Part shown: positions 2,963-42,782 of the stretch, piece by piece
How the letters are laid out: every line of letters starts with the position of its first letter
Numbering within the stretch: position 1 is the first letter of the stretch
Origin: Gemmatimonadaceae bacterium
GTDB taxonomy: Bacteria > Gemmatimonadota > Gemmatimonadetes > Gemmatimonadales > Gemmatimonadaceae
Direction of reading: 5' to 3'
Length of the DNA: 50,927 nt
Assembly: GCA_024654005.1 (NCBI GenBank)
Contig: JANLGX010000142.1
Span: 1-50,927 of the forward strand
Notes under the pieces: model-generated
The model's input: the letters and a program-made list of their open reading frames with translations, nothing else
Database searches by the model: none
Told to the model about the DNA's origin: nothing
Made by a program: the position numbers and the translations under genes

Positions 2963-4048
2963 ATGCAACCCGCCTTCCGCTTTTGCTCCTGGCTCGGTCC
3001 GATTATCGTTGGTGCCGCGCTCATCGCCGGCTGTGGAAGCGATGTCATCGGGCCGCCAGTGAACCCCGATCCCGTGGGCGCCTACTGGGCCCTCGAGCTC
3101 AATCATCGGGCGGCCACGATCTCCACCGTAGCGCCCAACCAGACAATCCAGCTCACGGCGACTCCGCGCTCCGTGGCGGGCGATCCGATCGCCGGGCTCG
3201 GCGCGGTGACGTTCACATCAGGGAATCCGGACGTCGTGCACGTGGACGCCGACGGATTGGTGACGGCGAAGGGACCCACGTTCGGCGTTCTCGTGATCGC
3301 CCAGCTCACCGCCACCGGCATCACCCACGCCGATACGGCGATGGTCCAGGTTACGGCCGATCCGCCGCGGACCCTCGCGACGTTCTCCATCCAGCCCGTG
3401 GCCCCTGACAGTGCCAAGTTCGCGCTCGGTGGCACGTTCACCCAGTCGTTTCGGGCATTGGGGGCAGTGGCGCGGGATACTGACGGGAATCAAATCTTCG
3501 GGCTGCCGGTGCACTTCGCGTCGCTCGACCGCACCACCGCGACCATCGATCCTCGGTCCGGGAGCATCGCTGGCATAAGACCGGGGTCGGTTCGGCTCGT
3601 CGCTACCACGACCGCGTATGGAATTACGCGGGCGGATACGGTGTCGTTCAGGATTGGCCTGCCGCTAATAGTGGACGTGCTCATCCGTGACTCGGTACTG
3701 CTCGCGACCACGCCGTCGCCGAATCTCTTCACGCCGGGCACGGTCACGATCGGCACCGGCGGCGTGGTCCGGTGGACAAACGCCACCACGGATTCGACCG
3801 ACGTCACCTTTGATAATCCCGCGAACGTGACAGCAGTCCCGGAGTGGGAGAACTGCCTCTTCTTCGGCGCGCCGTGCGACGCCGGCAACATCGCGCCGTT
3901 TGCTTGGGGGGGCAACTTCGACGACTTCTCCGATCTGGTGATGAACCTGCAGCGTGTCCGGCGCTTCGCGGCACCCGGCGTTTACCGCTACCGGAGCACC
4001 CGTTTTGGCATGGCCGGAACGATCGTGGTGGTGGACGAGAGCCAGTAA
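2963..4048 (+). CDS. Lipoprotein with two Ig-like (Big_2-type) repeats and a C-terminal cupredoxin-like domain
   Basis: The internal ATG at 2963 gives MQPAFRFCSWLGPIIVGAALIAGCGSD, a lipoprotein signal. Big_2-like segments are present (IQLTATPRS...VTFTSGNPDVVHVDADGLVTA and a second copy). The C-terminus GTVTIGTGGVVRWTN...YRYRSTRFGMAGTIVVV looks plastocyanin-like. The 2843 start would overlap susD. Confidence 0.6.
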   Translation: MQPAFRFCSWLGPIIVGAALIAGCGSDVIGPPVNPDPVGAYWALELNHRAATISTVAPNQTIQLTATPRSVAGDPIAGLGAVTFTSGNPDVVHVDADGLVTAKGPTFGVLVIAQLTATGITHADTAMVQVTADPPRTLATFSIQPVAPDSAKFALGGTFTQSFRALGAVARDTDGNQIFGLPVHFASLDRTTATIDPRSGSIAGIRPGSVRLVATTTAYGITRADTVSFRIGLPLIVDVLIRDSVLLATTPSPNLFTPGTVTIGTGGVVRWTNATTDSTDVTFDNPANVTAVPEWENCLFFGAPCDAGNIAPFAWGGNFDDFSDLVMNLQRVRRFAAPGVYRYRSTRFGMAGTIVVVDESQ

Positions 4049-17280: not shown

Positions 17281-18231
17281 TCACTCTGCCTTCAGCGACG
17301 GCCCCGTTCGCATTCCTTGGCGAGAATCACCGGCAAGCGAACGTGTGGTCTCCTCGATAGCGCGTGCTAGTACAGACCGCAGCCGACCGTCTTCCAGCGC
17401 GAGAAGGCCGGCTATCGTGCATCCACCGGGTGTCGTCACATCGTCCCTCAACGCGGCTGGATGCCGGCCTGTGCTGAGCACCATCTCGGCCGCGCCGAGC
17501 GTCATCTGGGCAGCGAGCTCGGTCGCAATGTCACGCGACAGTCCGCATCTCACCCCACCGTCTGCGAGCGCCTCCAGCACGAGGTATATGAAAGCGGGTC
17601 CGCTCGCGGACAGCGCGGTAACGGCATCCAGATGTCTTTCAGCGAGCGTCATGCAGCGCCCCAACGTTGAAAACAGCTCCGACGCCACCGCTAGGTGTGC
17701 GGCGGTCGCGGTGCATCCCTTAGCCAACACGGTCATGCCGTGCCCGATCGCACACGGCGTATTCGGCATCGCCCGGATCACGGGTGCTCGATCACCAACG
17801 ACTTCCTCGATCGCTGGTGTCGTGATCTTGGCCGCGACTGAGATCAGGAGGGGCTTGCTCGCGAATGCGCCGCAAGACACGAGCTCCGCCAGAATGTTCA
17901 GTACGTCGTGGGGCATTACGCAGATGACAACGACCGTAGCGCTCGCACACGCTGTCGCACTATCGGTTGCTACAACCACACCGAGGTCGTGAGCCACGGC
18001 TCGCGCTGCCGCCGTGTCGATGTCCGTAACCGCGATGCGCTCGGCGGCAATTGCACCGGTGCGGACCATCCCGGTCGCGATGGACCTCCCCATCGTGCCG
18101 GCCCCGATGACCGCAATGCGATGATTCGGATAGCGGGTCTGAAAGCGACCTTGAGCCCTTCTCTGGTCGACAGCTGCCGGAACAATGCGTGCGGACTTGT
18201 GCGGCGATCTCGATGGGACGTTACGAGACAT
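17281..18231 (-). CDS. proC: Pyrroline-5-carboxylate reductase
   Basis: Rossmann motif RIAVIGAGTMGRSI, plus ..IRAMPNTPCAIGHGMT.., ..SGPAFIYLVLEALADGG.. and ..TTPGGCTIAGL... The start is taken at the ATG at 18231 inside the 628-aa read-through ORF; the N-terminal 35 aa are uncertain. Confidence 0.85.
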   Translation of the reverse strand: MSRNVPSRSPHKSARIVPAAVDQRRAQGRFQTRYPNHRIAVIGAGTMGRSIATGMVRTGAIAAERIAVTDIDTAAARAVAHDLGVVVATDSATACASATVVVICVMPHDVLNILAELVSCGAFASKPLLISVAAKITTPAIEEVVGDRAPVIRAMPNTPCAIGHGMTVLAKGCTATAAHLAVASELFSTLGRCMTLAERHLDAVTALSASGPAFIYLVLEALADGGVRCGLSRDIATELAAQMTLGAAEMVLSTGRHPAALRDDVTTPGGCTIAGLLALEDGRLRSVLARAIEETTRSLAGDSRQGMRTGPSLKAE

Positions 18232-18275
18232 CGGTATGATCCGGGTGGTTAGCGGATGCGGAGAGGCTGGTTGCC

Positions 18276-18320
18276 AAAAACAAAATCGCCCCGTTCGGCG
18301 CGAGGCTCGAACGGGGCGAT
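18276..18320 (-). terminator. Rho-independent terminator, the 3' end of the aro operon transcript
   Basis: On the minus strand, ATCGCCCCGTTCG-(10 nt)-CGAACGGGGCGAT forms a 13-bp perfect stem, followed by TTTTGTTTTTGG. It lies inside the 628-aa ORF, between the hisIE remnant and proC. Confidence 0.8.
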
Positions 18321-18491
18321 TTCCGTCGGACGGAAACCTGGAATGACTAGCTGCTACTCCCCTAGGAGCACGTGCGCGCGAGCGGCGGCCAGCGCAGAAA
18401 TGCGCTGGGACGAGGGTCGCGGTCGAGGGTTCACGGTGCGGAAAAACATGGTGGAGTCCATCCATTAAGACACGCGAGAGCAACTGAGCCC

Positions 18492-19167
18492 CTATATGCG
18501 CACGTAACGGTGTTCTTGGCTGCTTGATTCCGTGGACCCAGGTTGGCCCTGGACCATGACTGGAGCTGGCGTGCGAGTAGCCAACGCGCCCCTGACCTCG
18601 CTCCACCCCACCCCCAGCCCCCGCAGCGCCACTACTATATGGTACAGGAGATCCGGCGACTTCCTCGACGGCAGCCGCGGCGTTCCCCTCGGACAGGGCC
18701 ATCACCAGCTCGGCGCACTCCTCGCCGAGCTTCTTCGTGCGCAGGTTCCGGTCGGCGAGCAAGACCCGCGTGTAGCTCCCGGACCCATTGCCTGAATCCG
18801 TAGCTCGATCTTGAATCGTCGCATCGAGAACGCTGAGCGCATCGGAACGCACGTCGTCACCAAAGCACGAGATCGTTCCCACGTGACACGCAGGTCCCGC
18901 CGGAGCGACGCGGGCCAACACCGCGTCACCGTCGCAATCGGCGGTGAGCGATACCACACGCTGAATCGAGCCGCTCGTCGCCCCCTTCCGCCACAGCCCG
19001 CGCGTACGGGACATGTAGTGCATCTCTCCGGTCGCGATCGTCCACTCGAACGCATCTCGACTCGCGTGCGCAACCATTACGACGGCTCCGGTCACCGCGT
19101 CCTGCGTCACGACCGTGACCAGGCCGCGCTCGTCGTACTTGAGAGTATCCAGATCGAGCGTGCTCAC
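18492..19167 (-). pseudogene. hisIE paralogue (PR-AMP cyclohydrolase / PR-ATP pyrophosphatase) with a +1 frameshift near its 3' end
   Basis: GTG start with a GTGA overlap to the upstream fragment. The protein is collinear with the hisIE at 24649..25260 up to ..AAAAVEEVA. One extra G, at about 18653-18656, then shifts the frame. Deleting it restores ..DLLYHIVVALRGLGVGWSEVRGAL.. and a stop at 18492. Confidence 0.7.
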
Positions 19168-19700
19168 GCTTCACCGTCGGATGAGGTGAGAATGGCGCGA
19201 ACATCGCCGGCCAACTTTCCGTTGGTCGCGATGACGCCGGCGAAGAACGAGGTCTGCCCGCCGGACCAATCGGTGAAAACGCCACCGGCTTCGGCAATAA
19301 TGGGGACGAAAGGAGACCAATCCCACACCGCCATACGCGCGTCCACCATACACTCAGCGCGGCCGGTCGCGACGACCGGATAACCGTAACCGTCGCCCCA
19401 CGTGCGCGCGTGACGGGCCCGCGCCGCGAGCGCGCGCCACTGGCCTGCACGGCCGGCCTCGGCGAGCAGCCGCTCCAGCTTCTGTTCCGGGTCGCCGGCC
19501 AGCAGCGGCCGGTCCGCGGCCGCCGCCCCCAGCCGCAGGGCTGCCGTCCGGGGCTCTACTCTAAGGTATATGGTAGGGCCGGCTTGAGGCACAAGTACCC
19601 CGATCGCCTCGTTCGAGATCCAGCCGGCACCAGGAGCAACTATAGCGGGGGTGCGGGGCAAGCGCTCGCGGAGCATGGCGATACTAGCTGCTGCAGCCAT
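19164..19700 (-). pseudogene. 5'-truncated hisN (IMPase-family histidinol-phosphatase) fragment
   Basis: The C-terminal ~110 aa closely match HisN at 25257..26030 (LLAEAGRAGQWRAL..WGD.YGY..VATGRAECMVDARMAVWDWSPFVPII.EAGGV..DWSGG). The N-terminal ~130 aa, including the DPIDGT metal site, are absent. The ORF start overlaps the aroA stop by 17 nt. Confidence 0.7.
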
Positions 19701-20976
19701 CGCTGCCGGCGCAGTACCCTACGACACGCTTCAAATCGTTCCAGAAGGTGGGGTACGACACGCTTACACATGCCGGACTCTCGATCTTGATGCGGTTTCC
19801 GGGCAACGCCCCAACTATGCCGAAGGCCATCGCGATGCGATGATCGCCCGCCGGATCGATAGTCCCATGTAGCTCCCGCCGCGGCCCCCACACCCTAAGT
19901 CCATCTTTCCGCTCTTCGGCTCGCGCACCAATTGCGATCAGATTGCTGACTACGGTCTTGATGCGATCGCTTTCCTTTGCCCGCAGCTCTTCTGCGCCGC
20001 TGATCTCGAGATCGACCCCGGCTCCAGCAGCGACGCAGGCGAGTAACGGAAGCTCGTCAATCAACGCTGGCACCTCGGCCTCAGTAATCGCAATTCCGGT
20101 CAGAATCCCGGGCAGAACACGAAGTGATCCGACTTCGTCACCGTTGCATGTCTTTGCATCTTCCCGGCTGATAATCGCTCCCATCCCATGCATAGCGCGA
20201 AGGAATCCGGTTCTGGTGCTGTTGAGGCACACATCGCTGAGAACCAGTTCGCTTTCGTCTGCGAGTGATGCGAGAGCCACGAAGAACGCAGCTGATGACG
20301 GATCCGCAGGCACATCAATCGTGAGAGGGCTCAAGCGTGCGGTGGGGTGAAGAGAAACGTGGTTCTCTCGGTCAACTCTGATATCAGCCCCCATTGACCG
20401 CAGCAGTCTCTCTGTGTGATCACGCGACAGGCTCTTCTCGTGGACGCGAACGTCGACGCCGGCGACGAGGCCTGCAAGCAGGATGGCGCCCTTTACCTGT
20501 GCGCTCGAGCCGCCCGTGTTCCAGGTCGCGCTTTTCAGGTCGCCTCCGTGCACAATGAACGGCAACCCATCGCCGCCCTCGAATTCGAACCGTGCGCGCA
20601 TCGCAGTCAAAGGTTCTGCGATGCGTTTCATCGGACGGCGGCTGAGACTTTCGTCGCCAACGAATCGTGCACTGAAGTCGCAAGCCGCCACAACGCCCGC
20701 GATCAACCGTGCTGTCGTTCCACTGTTGCCACAGTCGAGCGCACCCCGTGGCGATGTCAAGCCGCGTAGCCCCACTCCCTCAACGCGCATCGAGGTCGAC
20801 AAAGCTGGAAGCGCAACGCCGAGTGAACGGAGCACGGTCACGGTCGCGCGTATGTCCGCAGCGTCGGATATTCCACGAATATCCGACTCGCCCTCCGCAA
20901 GAGCCGCGAGGATGAGCGATCGGTGGGAGATGGACTTGTCTCCCGGCACTCGAAGCTGCCCGCGGACGCTCAACAT
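19684..20976 (-). CDS. aroA: 3-phosphoshikimate 1-carboxyvinyltransferase (EPSP synthase)
   Basis: Contains VPGDKSISHRSLILAALAEG, ..LDCGNSGTTARL.. and ..ELRAKESDRI... The start is taken at the ATG at 20976 (MLSVRGQLRVPGDKS). Confidence 0.9.
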   Translation of the reverse strand: MLSVRGQLRVPGDKSISHRSLILAALAEGESDIRGISDAADIRATVTVLRSLGVALPALSTSMRVEGVGLRGLTSPRGALDCGNSGTTARLIAGVVAACDFSARFVGDESLSRRPMKRIAEPLTAMRARFEFEGGDGLPFIVHGGDLKSATWNTGGSSAQVKGAILLAGLVAGVDVRVHEKSLSRDHTERLLRSMGADIRVDRENHVSLHPTARLSPLTIDVPADPSSAAFFVALASLADESELVLSDVCLNSTRTGFLRAMHGMGAIISREDAKTCNGDEVGSLRVLPGILTGIAITEAEVPALIDELPLLACVAAGAGVDLEISGAEELRAKESDRIKTVVSNLIAIGARAEERKDGLRVWGPRRELHGTIDPAGDHRIAMAFGIVGALPGNRIKIESPACVSVSYPTFWNDLKRVVGYCAGSDGCSS

Positions 20977-21034: not shown

Positions 21035-21490
21035 TCAATCGTAGCATCGGTCCGGCCGTAACGATCGCGCCTTCCGCAAATAGACGTGCTTAACGCCATT
21101 CAATGGCAACGTCGTCTCGACGTGCAACAAAACGCGGATGCAAAGCGGAGGTGCGTGCGGAACGGGAATCTCCGTAGCGCACAGACACGGGATGTCGTTC
21201 CAGTTCAGGTCGCGCGTCGCCCGAGCGGGAAACTCGCTGCGAATGTCGTGGGTGACGGTGAAAATGGCGCTCACGATCTGCGAGGAATCGAAGGAGTTCT
21301 TCTCGCCCATCTCGACCAGCAGCTCTGCCGTCGCTGACCTGACCTCATCCGCCTCATCCTGGTCGATCGTAGTTGCCCCGCGAACCGCCAGAACGCGAGA
21401 GTGCTGTGAGTTCTCCTCCCGGTCATGTATTCTTGCTGGCCCCTCGGGCCATGGAGCTGTAGGAGTCGCGCCCGCGCGTTGACTCTTCAT
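21035..21490 (-). CDS. aroH: Chorismate mutase, AroH class
   Basis: LAVRGATTIDQDEADEV...IVSAIFTVTHDIRSEFPA.. is the AroH (B. subtilis-type) pattern. The ATG shares one nt with the pheA stop (TGATG). The N-terminal ~30 aa extension is uncertain. Confidence 0.8.
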   Translation of the reverse strand: MKSQRAGATPTAPWPEGPARIHDREENSQHSRVLAVRGATTIDQDEADEVRSATAELLVEMGEKNSFDSSQIVSAIFTVTHDIRSEFPARATRDLNWNDIPCLCATEIPVPHAPPLCIRVLLHVETTLPLNGVKHVYLRKARSLRPDRCYD

Positions 21491-22077
21491 CAGAAGCTCT
21501 TTCGAGTCACGATGCGAAACAACGTGCGATTGTCGGGCACGTCGTCGATATTCTCCAACACGATGGTCAAGCCGTACCTCGCAGCAGCGGCGCGACCGGC
21601 TATCGCAGCCTGCGTGAGGCTACGCCCACTCGCGACGTGTCGAGCCGCGCCTCCCGTGTCGTAGCCCGGAACCGGAGTCAATGCCGGATGGTCGGCGAAG
21701 AAGCGTTTGCATTGCGCGATTGCCATGGGATGGCTCATCACGGTGCGAATTGTGTCGAGCCGCGCTCCGGGAAGAGCCAGGAGACAGTTGCGAATCGGAA
21801 ACAGGATCTCTCTCACAACCCTGAGATCATCCGCTTCTGCCAGAGCTGCCTCGCTCTCCACGACCGGACCAGCAATCGCGTTTCTGATCGGCAGGACACC
21901 GAATTCAACGCTTCCCGTGCTGACTTCTCGAATGACCGCTCGGAAATCGCGCTGCGGACACGATTGCGCCGATCCTTGCCAGACATGGGCGATCACCTCG
22001 TCGCTGTAGGCACCGTGCTCCCCCTGGAAAGCAACCCGCTGTATAGGTGCTTTCACGCTGGTACTGCCTCGGACCAT
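21490..22077 (-). CDS. pheA: Prephenate dehydratase, catalytic PDT domain only (no ACT domain)
   Basis: Contains [15 protein letters not shown].., ..[14 protein letters not shown].., ..[10 protein letters not shown].. The protein stops right after DNRTLFRIV, where an ACT domain normally begins. An alternative GTG start at 22056 makes a GTGA overlap with the aroF stop. Confidence 0.8.
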
Positions 22078-22949
22078 CGGTTCGCGCCCAGCACTCTCTC
22101 GCTCGTACCGTGACTCTGCTCGCGAACGTCGCGCTCCGCCGCCAGAGCGTAGCGACGGATGGTTTCCATAACGCGCTCGAATGCGGGGATGGTGAGCGAC
22201 TGCGGCCCATCGGATTTTGCTGTCGACGGGTCCGGGTGCACTTCGATGATGAGTCCGTCCGCCCCGACCGCAACGGCAGCGCAAGCCAGGGGCCCAATGA
22301 TGTCTGCTCTGCCGGCCGCGTGACTCGGATCAACTATCACGGGAAGGTGGGTCTCGGACTTGAGCACCGGGACCGCCGAGAGATCGAGAGTGTTGCGGGT
22401 TGCGGTCTCGAAGGTGCGAATGCCCCGCTCGCAGAGCACTACTCGAGGATTCCCTTGAGCCATGACATACTCCGCCGCGAGCAACAAGTCGTTTATCGTG
22501 GCTGACAGACCGCGCTTCAACAGAACCGGCTTCCCGCTTCTCCCAACCTCCGCAAGCAACGCGAAATTCTGCATGTTGCGCGCGCCTACCTGCAGCAAGT
22601 CTGAGTATTGACTGACAAGCTCGACCTGGCGGGTGTCCATTACTTCCGTAGCGACAGGTAGTCCGGTTTCGGCACGAGCTTCCGCGAGCATCTCGAGTGC
22701 TTGCTCACCGAGCCCCTGGAACGCATACGGCGATGTCCGCGGCTTGAACGCACCGCCTCGCAGCATCGACGCTCCTGCCGCCTTTACGGCCCGGGCGGTC
22801 TCGAGCAACATCGCTTTGCCTTCGACCGCACAGGGGCCGGCGATCACGACGAGACTGCGACCGCCGATCACGCAATCATCGGTGACCGTAACTTCGCTCG
22901 CGTTCTTGATGACATTCGTTTGCCGCGCAACAAGCTTGTAGGACTGCAT
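22053..22949 (-). CDS. aroF: 3-deoxy-7-phosphoheptulonate (DAHP) synthase, type I-beta, without an N-terminal regulatory domain
   Basis: Contains IAGPCAVEG.., ..[19 protein letters not shown].., ..CERGIRTFE.., ..VDPSHAAGR... It is collinear with the unadorned archaeal-type enzyme. The ATG at 22949 is used because the listed 22973 start is a TTG lying inside the terminator T-run. Confidence 0.9.
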
Positions 22950-22971
22950 CGGACGTTGGATTGGAGGAAAC

Positions 22972-22998
22972 AAAAAAAGGCCCCCGTGTTCGGGAGCC
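22972..22998 (-). terminator. Intrinsic terminator in the aroF 5' leader (the attenuator terminator)
   Basis: On the minus strand, GGCTCCCG-AACA-CGGGGGCC is followed by TTTTTTT. The T-run ends 22 nt before the aroF ATG. No minus-strand gene lies upstream that it could terminate. Confidence 0.8.
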
Positions 22999-23034
22999 TT
23001 GGAGAGGCATGCAGGAAGAAGCGTCAGCTTCTAG

Positions 23035-23121
23035 TTATACGAATGCACGCGATCTGGCCCCCGGGGTTGGCCCCGAAAAAAACCAGATAAAATAGAAGTT
23101 GGTGGCGAGCATTCTCGGCAT
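23035..23121 (-). CDS. Candidate aromatic-amino-acid leader peptide, MPRMLATNFYFIWFFSGPTPGARSRAFV
   Basis: A 28-codon ORF with a second in-frame ATG at 23112. It contains TTC TAT TTT ATC TGG TTT TTT (23097->23077). It lies between a promoter-like element and the leader terminator. Confidence 0.65.
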   Translation of the reverse strand: MPRMLATNFYFIWFFSGPTPGARSRAFV

Positions 23122-23130
23122 TGTACGGCA

Positions 23131-23159
23131 ATTGTATGTGTGCTCAGAAAAATGCGCAA
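23131..23159 (-). promoter_or_regulatory. Sigma-70-like promoter for the aro leader
   Basis: On the minus strand: TTGCGC (23159->23154), a 17-nt spacer, then TACAAT (23136->23131). A second TACAAT overlaps the first leader ATG. The region is locally AT-rich in an otherwise GC-rich genome. Confidence 0.5.
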
Positions 23160-23393
23160 GTGCATGGATCGACAAAATTCGGAGTACAAGAAGCGAGTCC
23201 GCGTGATCGCAAAAAGAATCGGTCGATGACGTAGGGGTATAGCGCGTTTCGCGCGTCGTTTTACGCATCACACCGCGCATCGTTTCTGTCTCGACGGCCC
23301 GGTTCGCTGGCGAGACCTCTCATCGCACGCGCGGGCGGCGCAGCAAAAGTGGCCTCTTTTATCTCTGCGTCCGAAGTAGTCTCCGTTGACTCC

Positions 23394-24461
23394 ATGACCA
23401 ACCTCCCGTACCCGATAAGAGTTGAGTCGGGCTCTTTTGCCGGCCTCGGTGGTCTTGTCAGGGAGGTCGCGCCTGCGCACAGGTACGCGATAATCACTGA
23501 CGCGAACGTGGCCCACCTGTACGGAAAGGCGGCCGCGTCATCTCTCGGAATAGATCAGGCGGATGTACTCGTCATTCCGGCGGGAGAGTCCAGCAAGACT
23601 CGCGCAACGTGGGGCTGGCTCACCGACGGGCTGATCACGCGCGGATTTGGCCGCGACTCTGCCGTCATATCGCTCGGCGGGGGAGTCGTTCTCGATCTCG
23701 CCGGGTTCGTCGCCGCGACGTACATGCGCGGCATCCCGATCGTCCACGTGCCGACCACGCTCCTTGCGATGATCGACGCCTCGATCGGCGGAAAGAGCGG
23801 CGTCGACACGGTGTTCGGGAAGAACCTGGTGGGCGCGTTTTACCGGCCGAACGGTGTACTCGTTGATCCGCTGTTCCTTGAAACGTTGCCGCGCAACGAG
23901 CTCCGAACGGGATTCGCCGAGGCGCTGAAGCATGGGGTCATCGCCGACCGGCATTACTTCGACTCGGTCGTGAGCGCGATGACTGGCGTTCTCAATGGTG
24001 CAGCGGCGGGTGAGTCACTCACGAGGCTGATCGAGGGCAGTGTAGCGGTCAAGGCAGGGATCGTAGGTCGTGACGAACGCGAGGATGGCCTAAGGAAGAT
24101 CCTCAATTTCGGGCACACAGTCGGCCACGCGGTCGAAATGCTGAGTGGTTACACGCTGGCGCATGGTGAAGCGGTGGCCATCGGAATGACTGTCGAGTCG
24201 AGAGTCGCCGAACGGGCCGGAGTAGCCATCAGTGGCACTGCTGCGGAGATCCGGAATGCTGTGGTCGCGGCCGGCCTTCCTGGTTCCGTGCCCCGAGGGA
24301 TGTCCGCGGATCGAATTCTCGAAGTAATGCGCTCCGACAAGAAGACGCGCGGAGGATTTGTGCACTACTCTCTCCCCAGGTCGATCGGTGACATGGCCGG
24401 ATCGGAATCCGGGTGGACGGTGGCGGTCAAAGACACGATCGTGAGAGAGGTTCTGCTGTGA
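23394..24461 (+). CDS. aroB: 3-dehydroquinate synthase
   Basis: Contains GGGVVLDLAGFVAATYMRGIPIVHVPTTLLAMIDASIGGKSGVD..GKNLVGAFYRP.. and ..NFGHTVGHAVE... A GTG at 23349 is an alternative start. Confidence 0.9.
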   Translation: MTNLPYPIRVESGSFAGLGGLVREVAPAHRYAIITDANVAHLYGKAAASSLGIDQADVLVIPAGESSKTRATWGWLTDGLITRGFGRDSAVISLGGGVVLDLAGFVAATYMRGIPIVHVPTTLLAMIDASIGGKSGVDTVFGKNLVGAFYRPNGVLVDPLFLETLPRNELRTGFAEALKHGVIADRHYFDSVVSAMTGVLNGAAAGESLTRLIEGSVAVKAGIVGRDEREDGLRKILNFGHTVGHAVEMLSGYTLAHGEAVAIGMTVESRVAERAGVAISGTAAEIRNAVVAAGLPGSVPRGMSADRILEVMRSDKKTRGGFVHYSLPRSIGDMAGSESGWTVAVKDTIVREVLL

Positions 24462-24648
24462 AGCCATACATCGATTGAGCGGCTAGTTCGACCCAAGGCC
24501 GCGGCGAAACAATAGGATTGACAAGTTCGGGCTGACTCCTGACCATTGCTTCAATGCCTATCGGCCTGACCCACCAAACCGGTGATCCGGCCCCCATCCG
24601 CGGTTTTTTTGAGCAGCAGGGGTGGGTTGCGCGCATTCGAGCCGGTGA

Positions 24649-25260
24649 TCACGCGGCATTCAAGGCTCTCGCAGCCAGTGCGCCCCTGACCTCGCTCCAC
24701 CCGACGCCCACTCCTCGAAGCGCCACTACTATATGGTATAGCAGGTCCGCGGCCTCCTCGACCGCAGCCGCGGCGTTCACCTCGGACAGCGCCATCACCA
24801 GCTCGGCGCACTCCTCGCCGAGCTTTTTTGTGCGCAGGTTCCGGTCTGCGACCAAAACCCGCGTGTAGCTCCCGCTGCTATCACTCGAATCGCCGGCCCG
24901 CTCCTGCACCGTCGCGTCGAGGACGCTGAGCGCATCGGAACGCACTTCGTCTCCAAAGCACGAGATCGTTCCGTCGTGACACGCCGGCCCCGCCGGAACG
25001 ACACGCGCCAATACCGCATCACTGTCGCAGTCGGCCGTGAGTGACACCACGCGCTGAGTCGCGCCGCTGGTCGCTCCTTTCCGCCACAGTCCGCGCGTGC
25101 GAGACAAATAGTGCATTTCTCCGGTTTCTACCGTCCACTCGAGCGCATCACGGCTCGCGTGCGCGACCATCAGAACGACGCCACTGACCGCGTCCTGTGT
25201 CACGACCGTGACCAGGCCGCGCTCGTCGTACGCGAGACTATCGAGATCGAGCGTGCTCAT
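24649..25260 (-). CDS. hisI: Bifunctional phosphoribosyl-AMP cyclohydrolase / phosphoribosyl-ATP pyrophosphatase
   Basis: MSTLDLDSLAYDERGLVTVVTQD...CHDGTISCF (HisI part), then ..RTKKLGEECAELVMA...DLLYHIVVAL (HisE part). ATGA overlap with the hisN stop. Confidence 0.9.
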   Translation of the reverse strand: MSTLDLDSLAYDERGLVTVVTQDAVSGVVLMVAHASRDALEWTVETGEMHYLSRTRGLWRKGATSGATQRVVSLTADCDSDAVLARVVPAGPACHDGTISCFGDEVRSDALSVLDATVQERAGDSSDSSGSYTRVLVADRNLRTKKLGEECAELVMALSEVNAAAAVEEAADLLYHIVVALRGVGVGWSEVRGALAARALNAA

Positions 25261-26030
25261 GCTTGACCATCCGATGCGGTGAGAATGGCGCGAACGTCGT
25301 TGGCCAACTTTCCATTGGTCGCGATGACGCCCGCGAAGAACGAGGTCTGTCCTCCGGACCAATCGGAGATAACTCCGCCAGCCTCAGTAATGATCGGGAC
25401 GAAAGGCGACCAATCCCACACCGCCATCCGCGCGTCCACCATGCACTCGGCGCGGCCGGTCGCGACAAGGAGATAGCCGTAGCAATCGCCCCACGTGCGC
25501 ACGTGACCGGCGCGCGCCGAGAGAGCGCGCCACTGGCCTGCACGGCCGGCCTCGGCGAGCAGTCGCTCCGCGGTCGTGAGCACCATCGCCTGGTCGAGCG
25601 TAGCGCGGTCGGACACGCGGACGCGCGATCCGTTCCACCAGCAACCCGCTCCGGGCGCAGCGGTGATCCACTCACCCAGCGCGGGAAAGACTGCGCAACC
25701 GGCGAGAATGTTATCACTTTCGACTACCGACACCAGCGTACCCCAGAGCGGTACGCCGCTCACGAAGGAGGCCGTGCCGTCGATAGGATCGAGGATCCAT
25801 TTGCGTGGTGCCTTCGGCCGGACCTCGCCGCACTCCTCGCCGAGTATCCCGTCGTCGGGGAAGTTTATCTCGAGCCACGATCGCATGGCTTCTTCCGCAA
25901 GCCGATCCGCGACAGTGACCGGCGAGCCGTCGAATTTCGTGTCCACCGCGGTCCGCCGCCCGAACCAGCGCTGAGCGACGTCGCCGCCGACGCGTGCGAC
26001 CTCGAGTGCAACTCTGGATAGCTCGTTCAT
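25257..26030 (-). CDS. hisN: Histidinol-phosphatase, inositol-monophosphatase family
   Basis: IMPase motifs are present (..PVTVADRLAEE.., ILDPIDGT, WDWSPFVPII). It is embedded in the his operon next to a monofunctional hisB. ATGA overlap with hisF. Confidence 0.8.
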   Translation of the reverse strand: MNELSRVALEVARVGGDVAQRWFGRRTAVDTKFDGSPVTVADRLAEEAMRSWLEINFPDDGILGEECGEVRPKAPRKWILDPIDGTASFVSGVPLWGTLVSVVESDNILAGCAVFPALGEWITAAPGAGCWWNGSRVRVSDRATLDQAMVLTTAERLLAEAGRAGQWRALSARAGHVRTWGDCYGYLLVATGRAECMVDARMAVWDWSPFVPIITEAGGVISDWSGGQTSFFAGVIATNGKLANDVRAILTASDGQA

Positions 26031-31907: not shown

Positions 31908-32003
31908 TTACAATCCCCCACACATGACAAGCCGCCGCGATCGATTGTCTCGATCATGGGTGTGCCGACGGTGCCACTTATGAGTCACAGAGGAGTATTG
32001 CAT
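31908..32003 (-). CDS. Candidate His-rich leader peptide, MQYSSVTHKWHRRHTHDRDNRSRRLVMCGGL
   Basis: A 31-codon ORF with 4 His codons in a 9-codon stretch (31982->31956). Alternative hairpins and the leader terminator follow. There is no obvious SD and the His codons are not consecutive. Confidence 0.4.
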   Translation of the reverse strand: MQYSSVTHKWHRRHTHDRDNRSRRLVMCGGL

Positions 32004-32102
32004 GACGAGTGTGTGGAGGGGCGGATGCCCCGATATGAGTAAGACGCCTGAGGAGGCGTAAACCCCTATACGAGCTTTTGACAGGGCTTGGCATTGTCCC
32101 GC

Positions 32103-32207
32103 GGAGCGTGCTACGGTGAGCTCCCCCAGTCGCGCCTACGCTTCGCTCGCAAACAGCGCTCGCTCGCTAAGACGGCGCTTTGGGGGAGCCCACCGCGAGC
32201 ACGCTCC
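32103..32207. repeat. Long imperfect hairpin element A (~26-nt arms)
   Basis: GGAGCGTGCTACGGTGAGCTCCCCCA ... TGGGGGAGCCCACCGCGAGCACGCTCC. An inner GCGCC/GGCGC stem encloses TACGCTTCGCTCGC... The loop core is shared with element B. Confidence 0.6.
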
Positions 32208-42063: not shown

Positions 42064-42741
42064 TTATGGATTCTCCCGCAGAATCCGCTGCCGATATTCC
42101 TCGCTCGCGTAGATGGCTACTTCCACGCGCCGGTTCTGCTGGCGTCCCGCTTCCGTCGAATTCGCAGCGATCGGCTCGGTCTCGCCGCGCCCCAGCGCCG
42201 TGATGCGGCTGGTCGCGATGCCCTTGGACTGCAAATACGCCGAAGCCGCCGTCGCGCGCCGCTGCGACAGCGCCAAGTTGTACGAGTCGGTTCCGACGCT
42301 GTCGGTGTGACCGACGATCGTCAGGGACGAGTTGGGGTACCGCTGCAGGCTGAGCGCCAGCTCGTCGAGATTCGCGCGGCCGGCGGGGAGGATCTGGTCG
42401 GAATCGAACGGGTACAGGATGCCCGATGCGAACGACACCGCGATCCCCTCACCGATGCGCGTGACGGTCGCGCCTTCGATTCTGTCGCCGAGCTCCTTGG
42501 CCTGCTGATCCATCTGATGACCGATCACCGCTCCGGCAGCTCCGCCGAGCACCGCGCCGATGATGGCGCCGCGCGCGGTGGAACCGGTCTGGTTGCCGAT
42601 CACTCCGCCGATGACGGCGCCGGTGCCGGCTCCGATGACCGCCCCGCGGTCGCGCTGGCTCATCGAGCTGCACGCGCTGGCCGCGAGTGATACTACTATC
42701 AAGCCACTGAGTAGCTGTGTTCTTCCGATTCTATTGGACAT
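42064..42741 (-). CDS. OmpA-family lipoprotein with an N-terminal glycine-zipper region (YiaD-like)
   Basis: Lipobox VSLAASAC. Gly-zipper GAVIGAGTGAVIGGVIG...GAIIGAVLGGAAGAVIG. OmpA_C motif TIVGHTDSVGTDSYNLALSQRRA...NRRVEV. Confidence 0.85.
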   Translation of the reverse strand: MSNRIGRTQLLSGLIVVSLAASACSSMSQRDRGAVIGAGTGAVIGGVIGNQTGSTARGAIIGAVLGGAAGAVIGHQMDQQAKELGDRIEGATVTRIGEGIAVSFASGILYPFDSDQILPAGRANLDELALSLQRYPNSSLTIVGHTDSVGTDSYNLALSQRRATAASAYLQSKGIATSRITALGRGETEPIAANSTEAGRQQNRRVEVAIYASEEYRQRILRENP

Positions 42742-42782
42742 GGTCGACTTCCCGGCTGAATGTGTCTTCCAGGACTATCAAG

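Follow-up and report, generated by a model that had tools for sequence, protein, structure and literature searches.

Upstream of aroF, the first gene of an aroF-pheA-aroH-aroA operon on the minus strand of a 50,927-nt contig from a Gemmatimonadaceae bacterium (JANLGX010000142.1 of assembly GCA_024654005.1, referred to as the window at its full length), lies a short leader that we read, with a probability of about 0.85, as a classical ribosome-mediated leader-peptide transcription attenuator controlling this operon in a Gemmatimonadota bacterium. The features that carry this reading are an open reading frame (ORF) rich in codons of the pathway, an intrinsic terminator, an antiterminator that shares strands with it, a strand of the first hairpin (1:2) that a ribosome on these codons would cover, and conservation in relatives. 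A preliminary description, drawn from the letters of the DNA, had proposed such an element, and its leader ORF with the aromatic run, its first hairpin, its octamer shared with the 3′ arm of the terminator and its T7 terminator were all found again where it had placed them (Table 1).

The run of aromatic codons in the leader ORF was the sole stretch with six Phe, Tyr or Trp codons in seven among the 90,933 stop-free seven-codon windows read in six frames over the whole 51-kb window, where these three residues together account for 6.4% of the codons in the genes. Regarding the start of the leader, the conserved one is the first ATG (23121), the ATG of Met4 being absent in five of the relatives described below (L163, L166, L167, L168 and L169). 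The ORF forms the 3′ part of an 81-codon open frame beginning at 23280, and the longer frame was rejected because three relatives have in-frame stops 6–25 codons upstream of the leader ATG. The leader stop codon precedes the aroF ATG by 85 nt. Only one other stretch of the window is rich in aromatic residues, VFFRFYWTW at 42717-42743 on the plus strand, which runs antisense to the beginning of an OmpA-family gene and stands before an M23 peptidase gene; it was rejected as a leader, having neither a terminator nor an aromatic-pathway gene after it, and was judged to have arisen by chance.

The minimum-free-energy (MFE) fold of 22950-23130 had a value of −58 kcal/mol and a z-score of −2.9, with none of 200 shuffled sequences as stable, and it holds three hairpins, i.e. 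a long 1:2 hairpin, a middle hairpin and the terminator. In the 1:2 hairpin, the inner stem is extended by an outer stem, in which UCUGGUUUU (23088-23080) is paired with GGGGCCAGA (23060-23052). Region 1, the 5′ strand of this hairpin, overlaps the last aromatic codons and is inside the footprint of a ribosome stalled there. Region 2, its partner, contains the octamer CGGGGGCC (23063-23056), which is found again at 22986-22979 in the 3′ arm of the terminator; there are four copies of this octamer on both strands of the window, two of which, those in the leader, are 77 nt apart. The leader stop codon is in or beside the middle hairpin, whose motif AGCUGACGC is invariant in the close family and was seen again in loci L006 and L011; this hairpin presumably has a role. 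The terminator, AAGGCUCCCG-AACA-CGGGGGCCUU (23000-22977), with its 5′ arm as region 3 and its 3′ arm as region 4, has a stem of 10 bp with 7 G-C pairs and a 4-nt loop, its 3′ arm overlaps a run of seven T (22978-22972), and from its end to the aroF ATG (22949) there are 22 nt. This spacer (22950-22971, minus strand, GUUUCCUCCAAUCCAACGUCCG) bears no Shine-Dalgarno sequence, carries a conserved CCUCC that resembles an anti-Shine-Dalgarno sequence, and is well kept in the close family.

In the proposed mechanism, transcription would start at or a few nucleotides before the leader AUG, and translation of the leader would do without a Shine-Dalgarno sequence. With charged Phe-, Tyr- and Trp-tRNAs available, the ribosome would clear the F-Y-F-I-W-F-F run and reach the stop codon, region 2 would be locked behind it in the 1:2 hairpin, and the 3:4 terminator with its U7 tract would form, so that RNA polymerase would halt 22 nt before aroF. 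On the other hand, when any one of the aromatic aminoacyl-tRNAs is scarce, the ribosome would stall on the run and cover region 1, by which region 2 (CGGGGGCC) would be freed to pair with region 3 (GGCUCCCG) once the latter is transcribed; no terminator would form, and the operon would be transcribed. We infer that the leader is translated, that termination takes place in vivo and that the system responds to amino-acid supply.

The helix energies were estimated as −20.8, −18.2 and −19.4 kcal/mol for 1:2, 2:3 and 3:4, respectively, where 2:3 is the antiterminator formed between 23063-23056 and 22998-22991. Then, a transcript ended just before the 3′ arm of the terminator was folded with a 30-nt ribosome footprint masked codon by codon; this replaced the folding of the complete, ribosome-masked leader at equilibrium, which was rejected as a test of the switch since it takes no account of the order in which the RNA is transcribed. 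In the absence of a ribosome, region 2 stayed in the 1:2 hairpin and none of the 10 bases of the terminator 5′ arm paired with region 2, four of them being held in a weak local stem. When the ribosome was placed anywhere on codons 1–15, the aromatic codons 9–15 included, 7–8 bases of the 5′ arm (22998-22991) paired with 23056-23063, enclosing the middle hairpin. With the ribosome anywhere from codon 17 to the stop, region 2 was masked or back in the 1:2 hairpin and the 5′ arm was free of it. In silico, terminator and antiterminator are mutually exclusive and depend on ribosome position, and the folding check that the preliminary description had called for turned out in its favour; these simulations show that the switch is feasible and fall short of a proof of it.

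The promoter named in the preliminary description (TTGCGC, 17 nt, TACAAT) was also recovered, with 9 nt between its −10 box and the leader ATG. Both hexamers and their distance to the ATG are kept in nine relatives (−35: TTGC(G/A/T)(C/T/G); −10: TACAAT, TACAGT or TAGGAT; gap to ATG: 8–9 nt). A generic promoter scan of 21500-25000 called no site, the leader promoter included, because TTGCGC matches the TTGACA consensus at only 3 of 6 positions, and the assignment is therefore based on conservation. No Shine-Dalgarno-like motif was found before the leader ATG in the window or in the close relatives. Since the promoter is only 9 nt before the leader ATG, the transcript is probably leaderless or nearly so, with its start placed by promoter spacing. 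The intergenic region has a GC content of 0.49–0.53 against 0.58–0.67 in the flanks, in agreement with its description as AT-rich.

Close relatives were collected by a protein-cluster search and contig retrieval, which gave nine loci (L161–L169) with DAHP synthases 81–97% identical to that encoded by aroF. All nine retain the promoter, the run of aromatic codons, the octamer of the antiterminator and the terminator, and the leader aligns throughout; conservation of the ORF and its run had been named beforehand, in the preliminary description, as a refuting test. The run follows the pattern N-F-(Y/F)-F-(I/T)-W-(F/Y)-(F/Y/W), in which changes are almost all from one aromatic residue to another (leader peptides: MPTMLAANFFFIWFYSGQKARGPDRVHSYN in L161, MPRILATNFYFTWFYGVKPRGPGRVRSY in L163, MTRMLAGNFYFTWFYEAKPRGPGCMHSYD in L164, MPRILATNFYFTWFWGVKPWEPGCVHSYN in L166, MSKTHTANFYFTWYYGVLPREPGRARLYS in L167 and MPRVIAISSYFTWYRGLTPRGPGRVRFYR in L169). 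Downstream of the run, an indel shifts the frame of the window relative to the relatives and the nucleotides are nonetheless conserved, indicating that the RNA rather than the tail of the peptide is under selection there. Compensatory changes are seen in the inner stem of the first hairpin, which is CGGGG:CCCCG in the window, CGGGC:GCCCG in L161 and GAGG:CCUC in L164. At one position the octamer and the terminator 3′ arm are both G in the window, L161 and L162 and both A in L166, L167 and L168, opposite a shared U partner in the 5′ arm. The antiterminator helix was paired in 96.9% of the cells of an alignment of eight sequences, compared to 34–50% in controls for which the whole named structure was slid. 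Upstream of the leader, the relatives have different genes (aroB, a his operon, an ECF sigma factor or a co-directional gene), and the leader always stays with aroF. Accordingly, the possibility that the hairpin terminates an upstream minus-strand transcript, which the preliminary description had raised against its own proposal, was rejected: aroB is divergent from aroF in the window, and in the relatives the neighbour changes and the leader does not.

Beyond the close family, scans of genome and metagenome proteins gave, among the matches listed, relatives of at most 75% identity, and the best of those in named genomes were metagenome-assembled genomes (MAGs) of Gemmatimonadota with DAHP synthases 62–71% identical to that of the window. 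The upstream regions at these Gemmatimonadota loci have little sequence likeness to the window and an equal design, and leaders of the same design were found in L001, L002, L003, L005, L006, L009, L011, L013, L016 and L017 (for instance, MTTHATSYLAYFTSFWGYSPGSR followed by a stop in L001, ...GYRYYRF... in L003, MTRATAYRYYYYFATR... in L009, ...ALFTFAFYFGTSGG... in L011, MTRFWFSATYYYGFFGYNRW... in L013 and L016, and ...YTRFYF... in L017). After the run, L001, L003, L009, L011, L013, L016 and L017 each have a copy of the terminator 3′-arm sequence, a GC-rich hairpin and a U-tract. The cultured Longimicrobium terrae (L170) has the leader MTNATFSYRGYRFYGLPSGTSWRGARV, closed by a stop codon, at 3805-3888 and a terminator at about 3913-3950. 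In a Gemmatimonadota MAG (L008, 1657-1809), the leader MLIAPATRPYYFSSTSYRFTPGAAGAYVSV, also closed by a stop codon, stands before pheA, and the DAHP synthase gene comes after pheA, i.e. the gene order is swapped. A covariance model built on the close family matched the leader as its only hit in the window, and gave weak full-length matches at the expected sites in L157 (29.9 bits), L008 (25.4 bits), L083, L001, L006 and L002.

All loci were then judged by one rule, namely a terminator with an upstream ORF of 10–45 codons that has at least 4 aromatic residues in seven. By this rule, the region before the DAHP synthase gene was positive in 42 of 153 cases, compared to 0 of 153 for the reverse complements of these regions and 7 of 523 for windows drawn at random from these loci. 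Together with one short region, there were 43 positives, and all 43 could form an antiterminator of at least 5 bp with the ribosome on the run, its upstream strand beginning about 15–25 nt after the last aromatic codon. Most positives have a −10-like hexamer 6–12 nt before the leader ATG, and in 37 of the 43 a Shine-Dalgarno-like motif is absent. Among those with names are Geomonas and Geoanaerobacter, Acidobacteriota including Terriglobia, and a Planctomicrobium MAG; an aromatic leader with a terminator precedes class I-beta DAHP synthase genes in Geobacterales, in Acidobacteriota/Terriglobia and in a Planctomycetota MAG (L004, L024, L033, L039, L040, L071 and about 20 metagenome loci, for instance, L129, L132, L141, L144 and L158). 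Many Acidobacteriota-like leaders share the terminator GGCCCACTC-loop-GAGTGGGC(T/C).

Several points weigh against the attenuator. What is known of it here comes from sequence, conservation and folding in silico. Covariation in the close family is modest, most pairs being invariant, and a clean pattern of free, stalled and stop states at equilibrium was obtained for only 13 of the 43 positives. The promoter is weak compared to the TTGACA consensus and was missed by the scan, and translation of a leader that has no Shine-Dalgarno sequence must rely on leaderless or near-leaderless initiation. In the shortened transcript, codons 1–8 also gave the antiterminator, i.e. behaved like stalled positions, so the antiterminator and 1:2 states appear to be near in energy and not cleanly switched, and the order of transcription would therefore have to set the default state. 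Equilibrium folding of the full transcript left the terminator in place for 27 of the 29 ribosome positions that were modelled, as one would expect if the decision in attenuation is made kinetically; folding at equilibrium stands in only crudely for folding during transcription.

A terminator and antiterminator pair is by itself silent on what flips the switch, and the motif in the middle hairpin is strikingly conserved, so that the switch might be real but run by a factor in trans or a ligand (a TRAP-like or PyrR-like protein, an uncharged tRNA in the manner of a T-box, or a small molecule), with the short ORF being incidental. We regard this as very improbable, since the aromatic run is the one feature kept across leaders that share little sequence, and it is always about 15–25 nt upstream of the antiterminator strand. 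Moreover, T-box models, which describe the tRNA-sensing riboswitches of aromatic genes in Firmicutes, and other riboswitch models of Rfam gave no match in 22900-23350 even at E-values up to 10, and no TRAP-type array of GAG/UAG repeats was noticed on reading the sequence, for which no dedicated scan was made.

It is also conceivable that the short ORF acts on the translation of aroF, as an upstream ORF for reinitiation or coupling, and not on the termination of transcription. The lack of a Shine-Dalgarno sequence at aroF and the conservation of the 22 nt before its ATG would suit such a role, and a boost by reinitiation has been proposed for leader genes near structural genes (PMC4833913); however, the distance of 85 nt from the leader stop to the aroF ATG is far from the reported peak of reinitiation at 10–13 bp (PMC4833913), and a conserved canonical GC-rich hairpin of 10 bp with a U7 tract stands between the two, which makes control at the level of translation a slim prospect. 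The least probable reading, a chance ORF that lies, between divergent genes, beside a hairpin serving as constitutive terminator or insulator, could draw on the numbers of terminator-like sites in a 3.5-kb stretch (3 found, 2.5 expected from shuffles) and on an octamer that is not over-represented across the whole window, but it is contradicted by the uniqueness of the aromatic run, by the retention of ORF, promoter and structures in relatives whatever gene is upstream, by the excess of real upstream regions over both sets of controls, and by the silencing of an essential biosynthetic operon that a constitutive terminator 22 nt before its first gene would bring about. We therefore return to ribosome-mediated attenuation as the preferred reading of the leader, whose elements are listed in Table 1 together with the genes around it.

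Table 1. Positions of the leader elements and of the aro genes in the window
Feature	Position	Strand	Description and basis
Leader promoter	23131..23159	minus	−35 TTGCGC 23159-23154, 17-nt spacer, −10 TACAAT 23136-23131; read from sequence
Leader ORF	23035..23121	minus	28 codons and TAA, MPRMLATNFYFIWFFSGPTPGARSRAFV; ATG 23121, TAA 23037-23035
Regulatory codon run	23077..23097	minus	TTC TAT TTT ATC TGG TTT TTT, F-Y-F-I-W-F-F; codons 9-15
Region 1 (5′ strand of 1:2 hairpin)	23071..23088	minus	outer UCUGGUUUU 23088-23080, inner (U)CGGGG 23076-23071; MFE fold and RNAalifold consensus
First hairpin, inner stem	23075-23062	minus	CGGGG-CCAA-CCCCG; MFE fold
Region 2	23052..23066	minus	CCCCGGGGGCCAGA; partner is region 1, or the terminator 5′ arm via the octamer CGGGGGCC
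Middle hairpin	23007..23050	minus	GCGUGCA...AGAAGC-UGAC-GCUUCU...UGCAUGC; fold and RNAalifold consensus; enclosed by the antiterminator
Intrinsic terminator	22972..23000	minus	AAGGCTCCCG-AACA-CGGGGGCCTT at 23000-22977, then U7; terminator scan and fold
aroF	22053..22949	minus	DAHP synthase class I-beta, 298 aa; PF00793, NF006421 matched from profile position 67 only
pheA	21490..22056	minus	prephenate dehydratase, 188 aa, catalytic domain only; PF00800 only; GTG start overlaps aroF stop
aroH	21035..21490	minus	AroH-type chorismate mutase; PF07736, TIGR01796; start overlaps prephenate dehydratase stop
aroA	19684..20976	minus	EPSP synthase, last intact operon gene in the window; PF00275, TIGR01356; start from 430-aa L161 orthologue
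aroB	23349-24461	plus	divergent from aroF

Among the enzymes of the operon, the DAHP synthase has no N-terminal ferredoxin-like domain, as its match to NF006421 begins only within the profile, and the prephenate dehydratase has no ACT domain and has a 188-aa orthologue in L161. The same holds for the clade of the window, whose DAHP synthases are 81–98% identical and 297–298 aa long (one gene call of 318 aa) in the protein-cluster search: PF18152 is absent from this clade (proteins P0002-P0013), while most Gemmatimonadota homologues carry it, and the adjacent prephenate dehydratases of the clade have no ACT domain. The absence of allosteric domains, as claimed in the preliminary description, was thus borne out. 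The preliminary description had taken this to fit control at the transcript level, which needs a qualification: a Gemmatimonas MAG (L171) has a DAHP synthase with the ferredoxin-like domain, a prephenate dehydratase with ACT and also a leader (MSYSAAFAYFRFYWATPKTGRGRRHARM followed by a stop, with an antiterminator ACGGGCCGC identical to the terminator 3′ arm). The leader is therefore independent of domain loss, and the loss does not explain the attenuator.

The aro cluster as a whole is flanked by the two copies of an 898-bp direct repeat (18579-19476 and 24673-25569, 85.5% identical), which covers hisN in its 3′ part and hisIE in its 5′ part. In L161, which has 96% nucleotide identity to the window over 24462 to 19668, aroA is followed by aroC and a full aroK. 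The window has about 1.3 kb less than L161 after aroA, without aroC and the 5′ part of aroK, and a fragment of aroK is fused to the hisN′ copy; the original hisN-hisIE junction is on the other side of the aro cluster. As a result, there are chimeric ORFs, one of a SKI fragment and the C-terminus of HisN (19164-19700) and one of the N-terminal part of HisIE and ProC (17281-19167). This truncation or rearrangement after aroA, which also concerns 19462-19666 and 17281-19700, is a scar left by recombination or else a chimera of the assembly, and the leader is untouched by it. In the divergent intergenic region, about 100 nt upstream of aroB, a plus-strand GC hairpin with a T-rich tail, GCGCGTTTCGCGC, was seen at 23242-23254. 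Regarding the histidine operon, no His-codon run that would mark a His leader was found upstream of hisG at 31958-32100. A 107-bp palindromic element (32100-32206; GGAGCGTGCT...CGGTGGGCTCCCCCA...TGGGGGAGCTCACCG...AGCACGCTCC) upstream of hisG is not a tRNA and has no His-codon run either; a 94% identical copy is found in L161 (2075-2180) in an unrelated context, and the element looks like a small mobile repeat of the miniature inverted-repeat transposable element (MITE) or repetitive extragenic palindromic (REP) type.

The attenuator leaves the knowledge of how attenuation works unchanged and adds no new mechanism, but it provides a regulatory annotation for the poorly known phylum Gemmatimonadota. 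Leaders of this design precede DAHP synthase genes in four phyla or more and have no Rfam entry, so a curated family would help to annotate many MAGs from soil, where such ORFs are missed or called hypothetical proteins. A clade with domain-less enzymes also offers a natural test of attenuation replacing allosteric feedback and of a possible evolutionary trade-off. On a broader view, which we hold tentatively and at somewhat under even odds, these leaders could form a large uncatalogued RNA class of attenuators without Shine-Dalgarno sequences, probably leaderless and with mixed Phe/Tyr/Trp codons, that gate the entry to the shikimate pathway at the class I-beta DAHP synthase across Gemmatimonadota, Acidobacteriota, Geobacterales and Planctomycetota, and that would be the main feedback device in the clade of the window after loss of the ferredoxin-like and ACT domains.

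Like aroR-aroF of Corynebacterium glutamicum, the leader is a mixed-aromatic peptide directly before an operon headed by a DAHP synthase gene, whereas the run in the window is longer (6 of 7) and includes Trp, and the likeness established to this system of an Actinomycetota species is one of function. The element of C. glutamicum reacts to Phe and not to Tyr. The C. glutamicum enzyme, cg1129, is one that we take to be a class I-alpha DAHP synthase, compared to class I-beta in the window. In the summary of Neshat et al. 2014 given in a later paper (PMC11802643), the F-Y-F leader of aroR precedes the DAHP synthase gene and limitation of Phe raises read-through; this attenuator had been predicted earlier (PMC4046766).

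With pheL-pheA of Escherichia coli, the leader shares the four-region logic, i.e. a short ORF with a run, the 1:2, 2:3 and 3:4 alternatives, an intrinsic terminator and a Phe-pathway gene downstream, since the operon of the window also has a prephenate dehydratase. On the other hand, pheL is an ORF led by a Shine-Dalgarno sequence, has Phe codons only and controls pheA alone, not the entry enzyme of the shikimate pathway. No Rfam family matched anywhere in the window at gathering thresholds, and in the permissive scan of the leader region all matches were below threshold and lay over the end with the terminator (Phe_leader, suhB, ctRNA and isrD). The Phe_leader family (RF01859) reached 24.1 bits, compared to a gathering score of 55, and covered 22971-23039 only, with the stop codon, the middle hairpin and the terminator, and not the aromatic run. 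In our view, the leader works like pheL and is not a member of RF01859.

Leaderless leader peptides with mapped starts are known in Deinococcus deserti (PMC4007540), and in mycobacteria there are leaderless short ORFs with polycysteine that respond to cysteine (bioRxiv 10.1101/834739). The leader resembles these in having its ORF at or near the 5′ end and no Shine-Dalgarno sequence, with a −10 box 6–10 nt before the ATG in most carriers; in Deinococcus and mycobacteria the starts were mapped experimentally, whereas that in the window is deduced from promoter spacing. For the same class of DAHP synthase outside Proteobacteria, a 2005 list drawn from the Merino database (Table 7 of PMC1173090) has putative attenuators, i.e. 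terminator and antiterminator structures, before class I-beta operons of Thermus thermophilus, Bacteroides thetaiotaomicron and Thermoanaerobacter; as given there, these are structural predictions with no leader peptide described and no Gemmatimonadota among them. According to Naville and Gautheret (2010), Proteobacteria and Actinobacteria were the only groups with known leader peptides, to which they added a case in Firmicutes (PMC2965389). Our literature search found no paper joining Gemmatimonadetes with attenuation and leader peptides, an earlier description in the survey of Lopatovskaya et al. (2010) being possible. The novelty asserted in the preliminary description thus holds insofar as no account for Gemmatimonadota was found, and was overstated in view of aroR-aroF and the 2005 predictions. 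In comparison with these systems, the lineage is new and the element is absent from Rfam, while there are precedents for the logic, for the target enzyme and even for the probable leaderless start.

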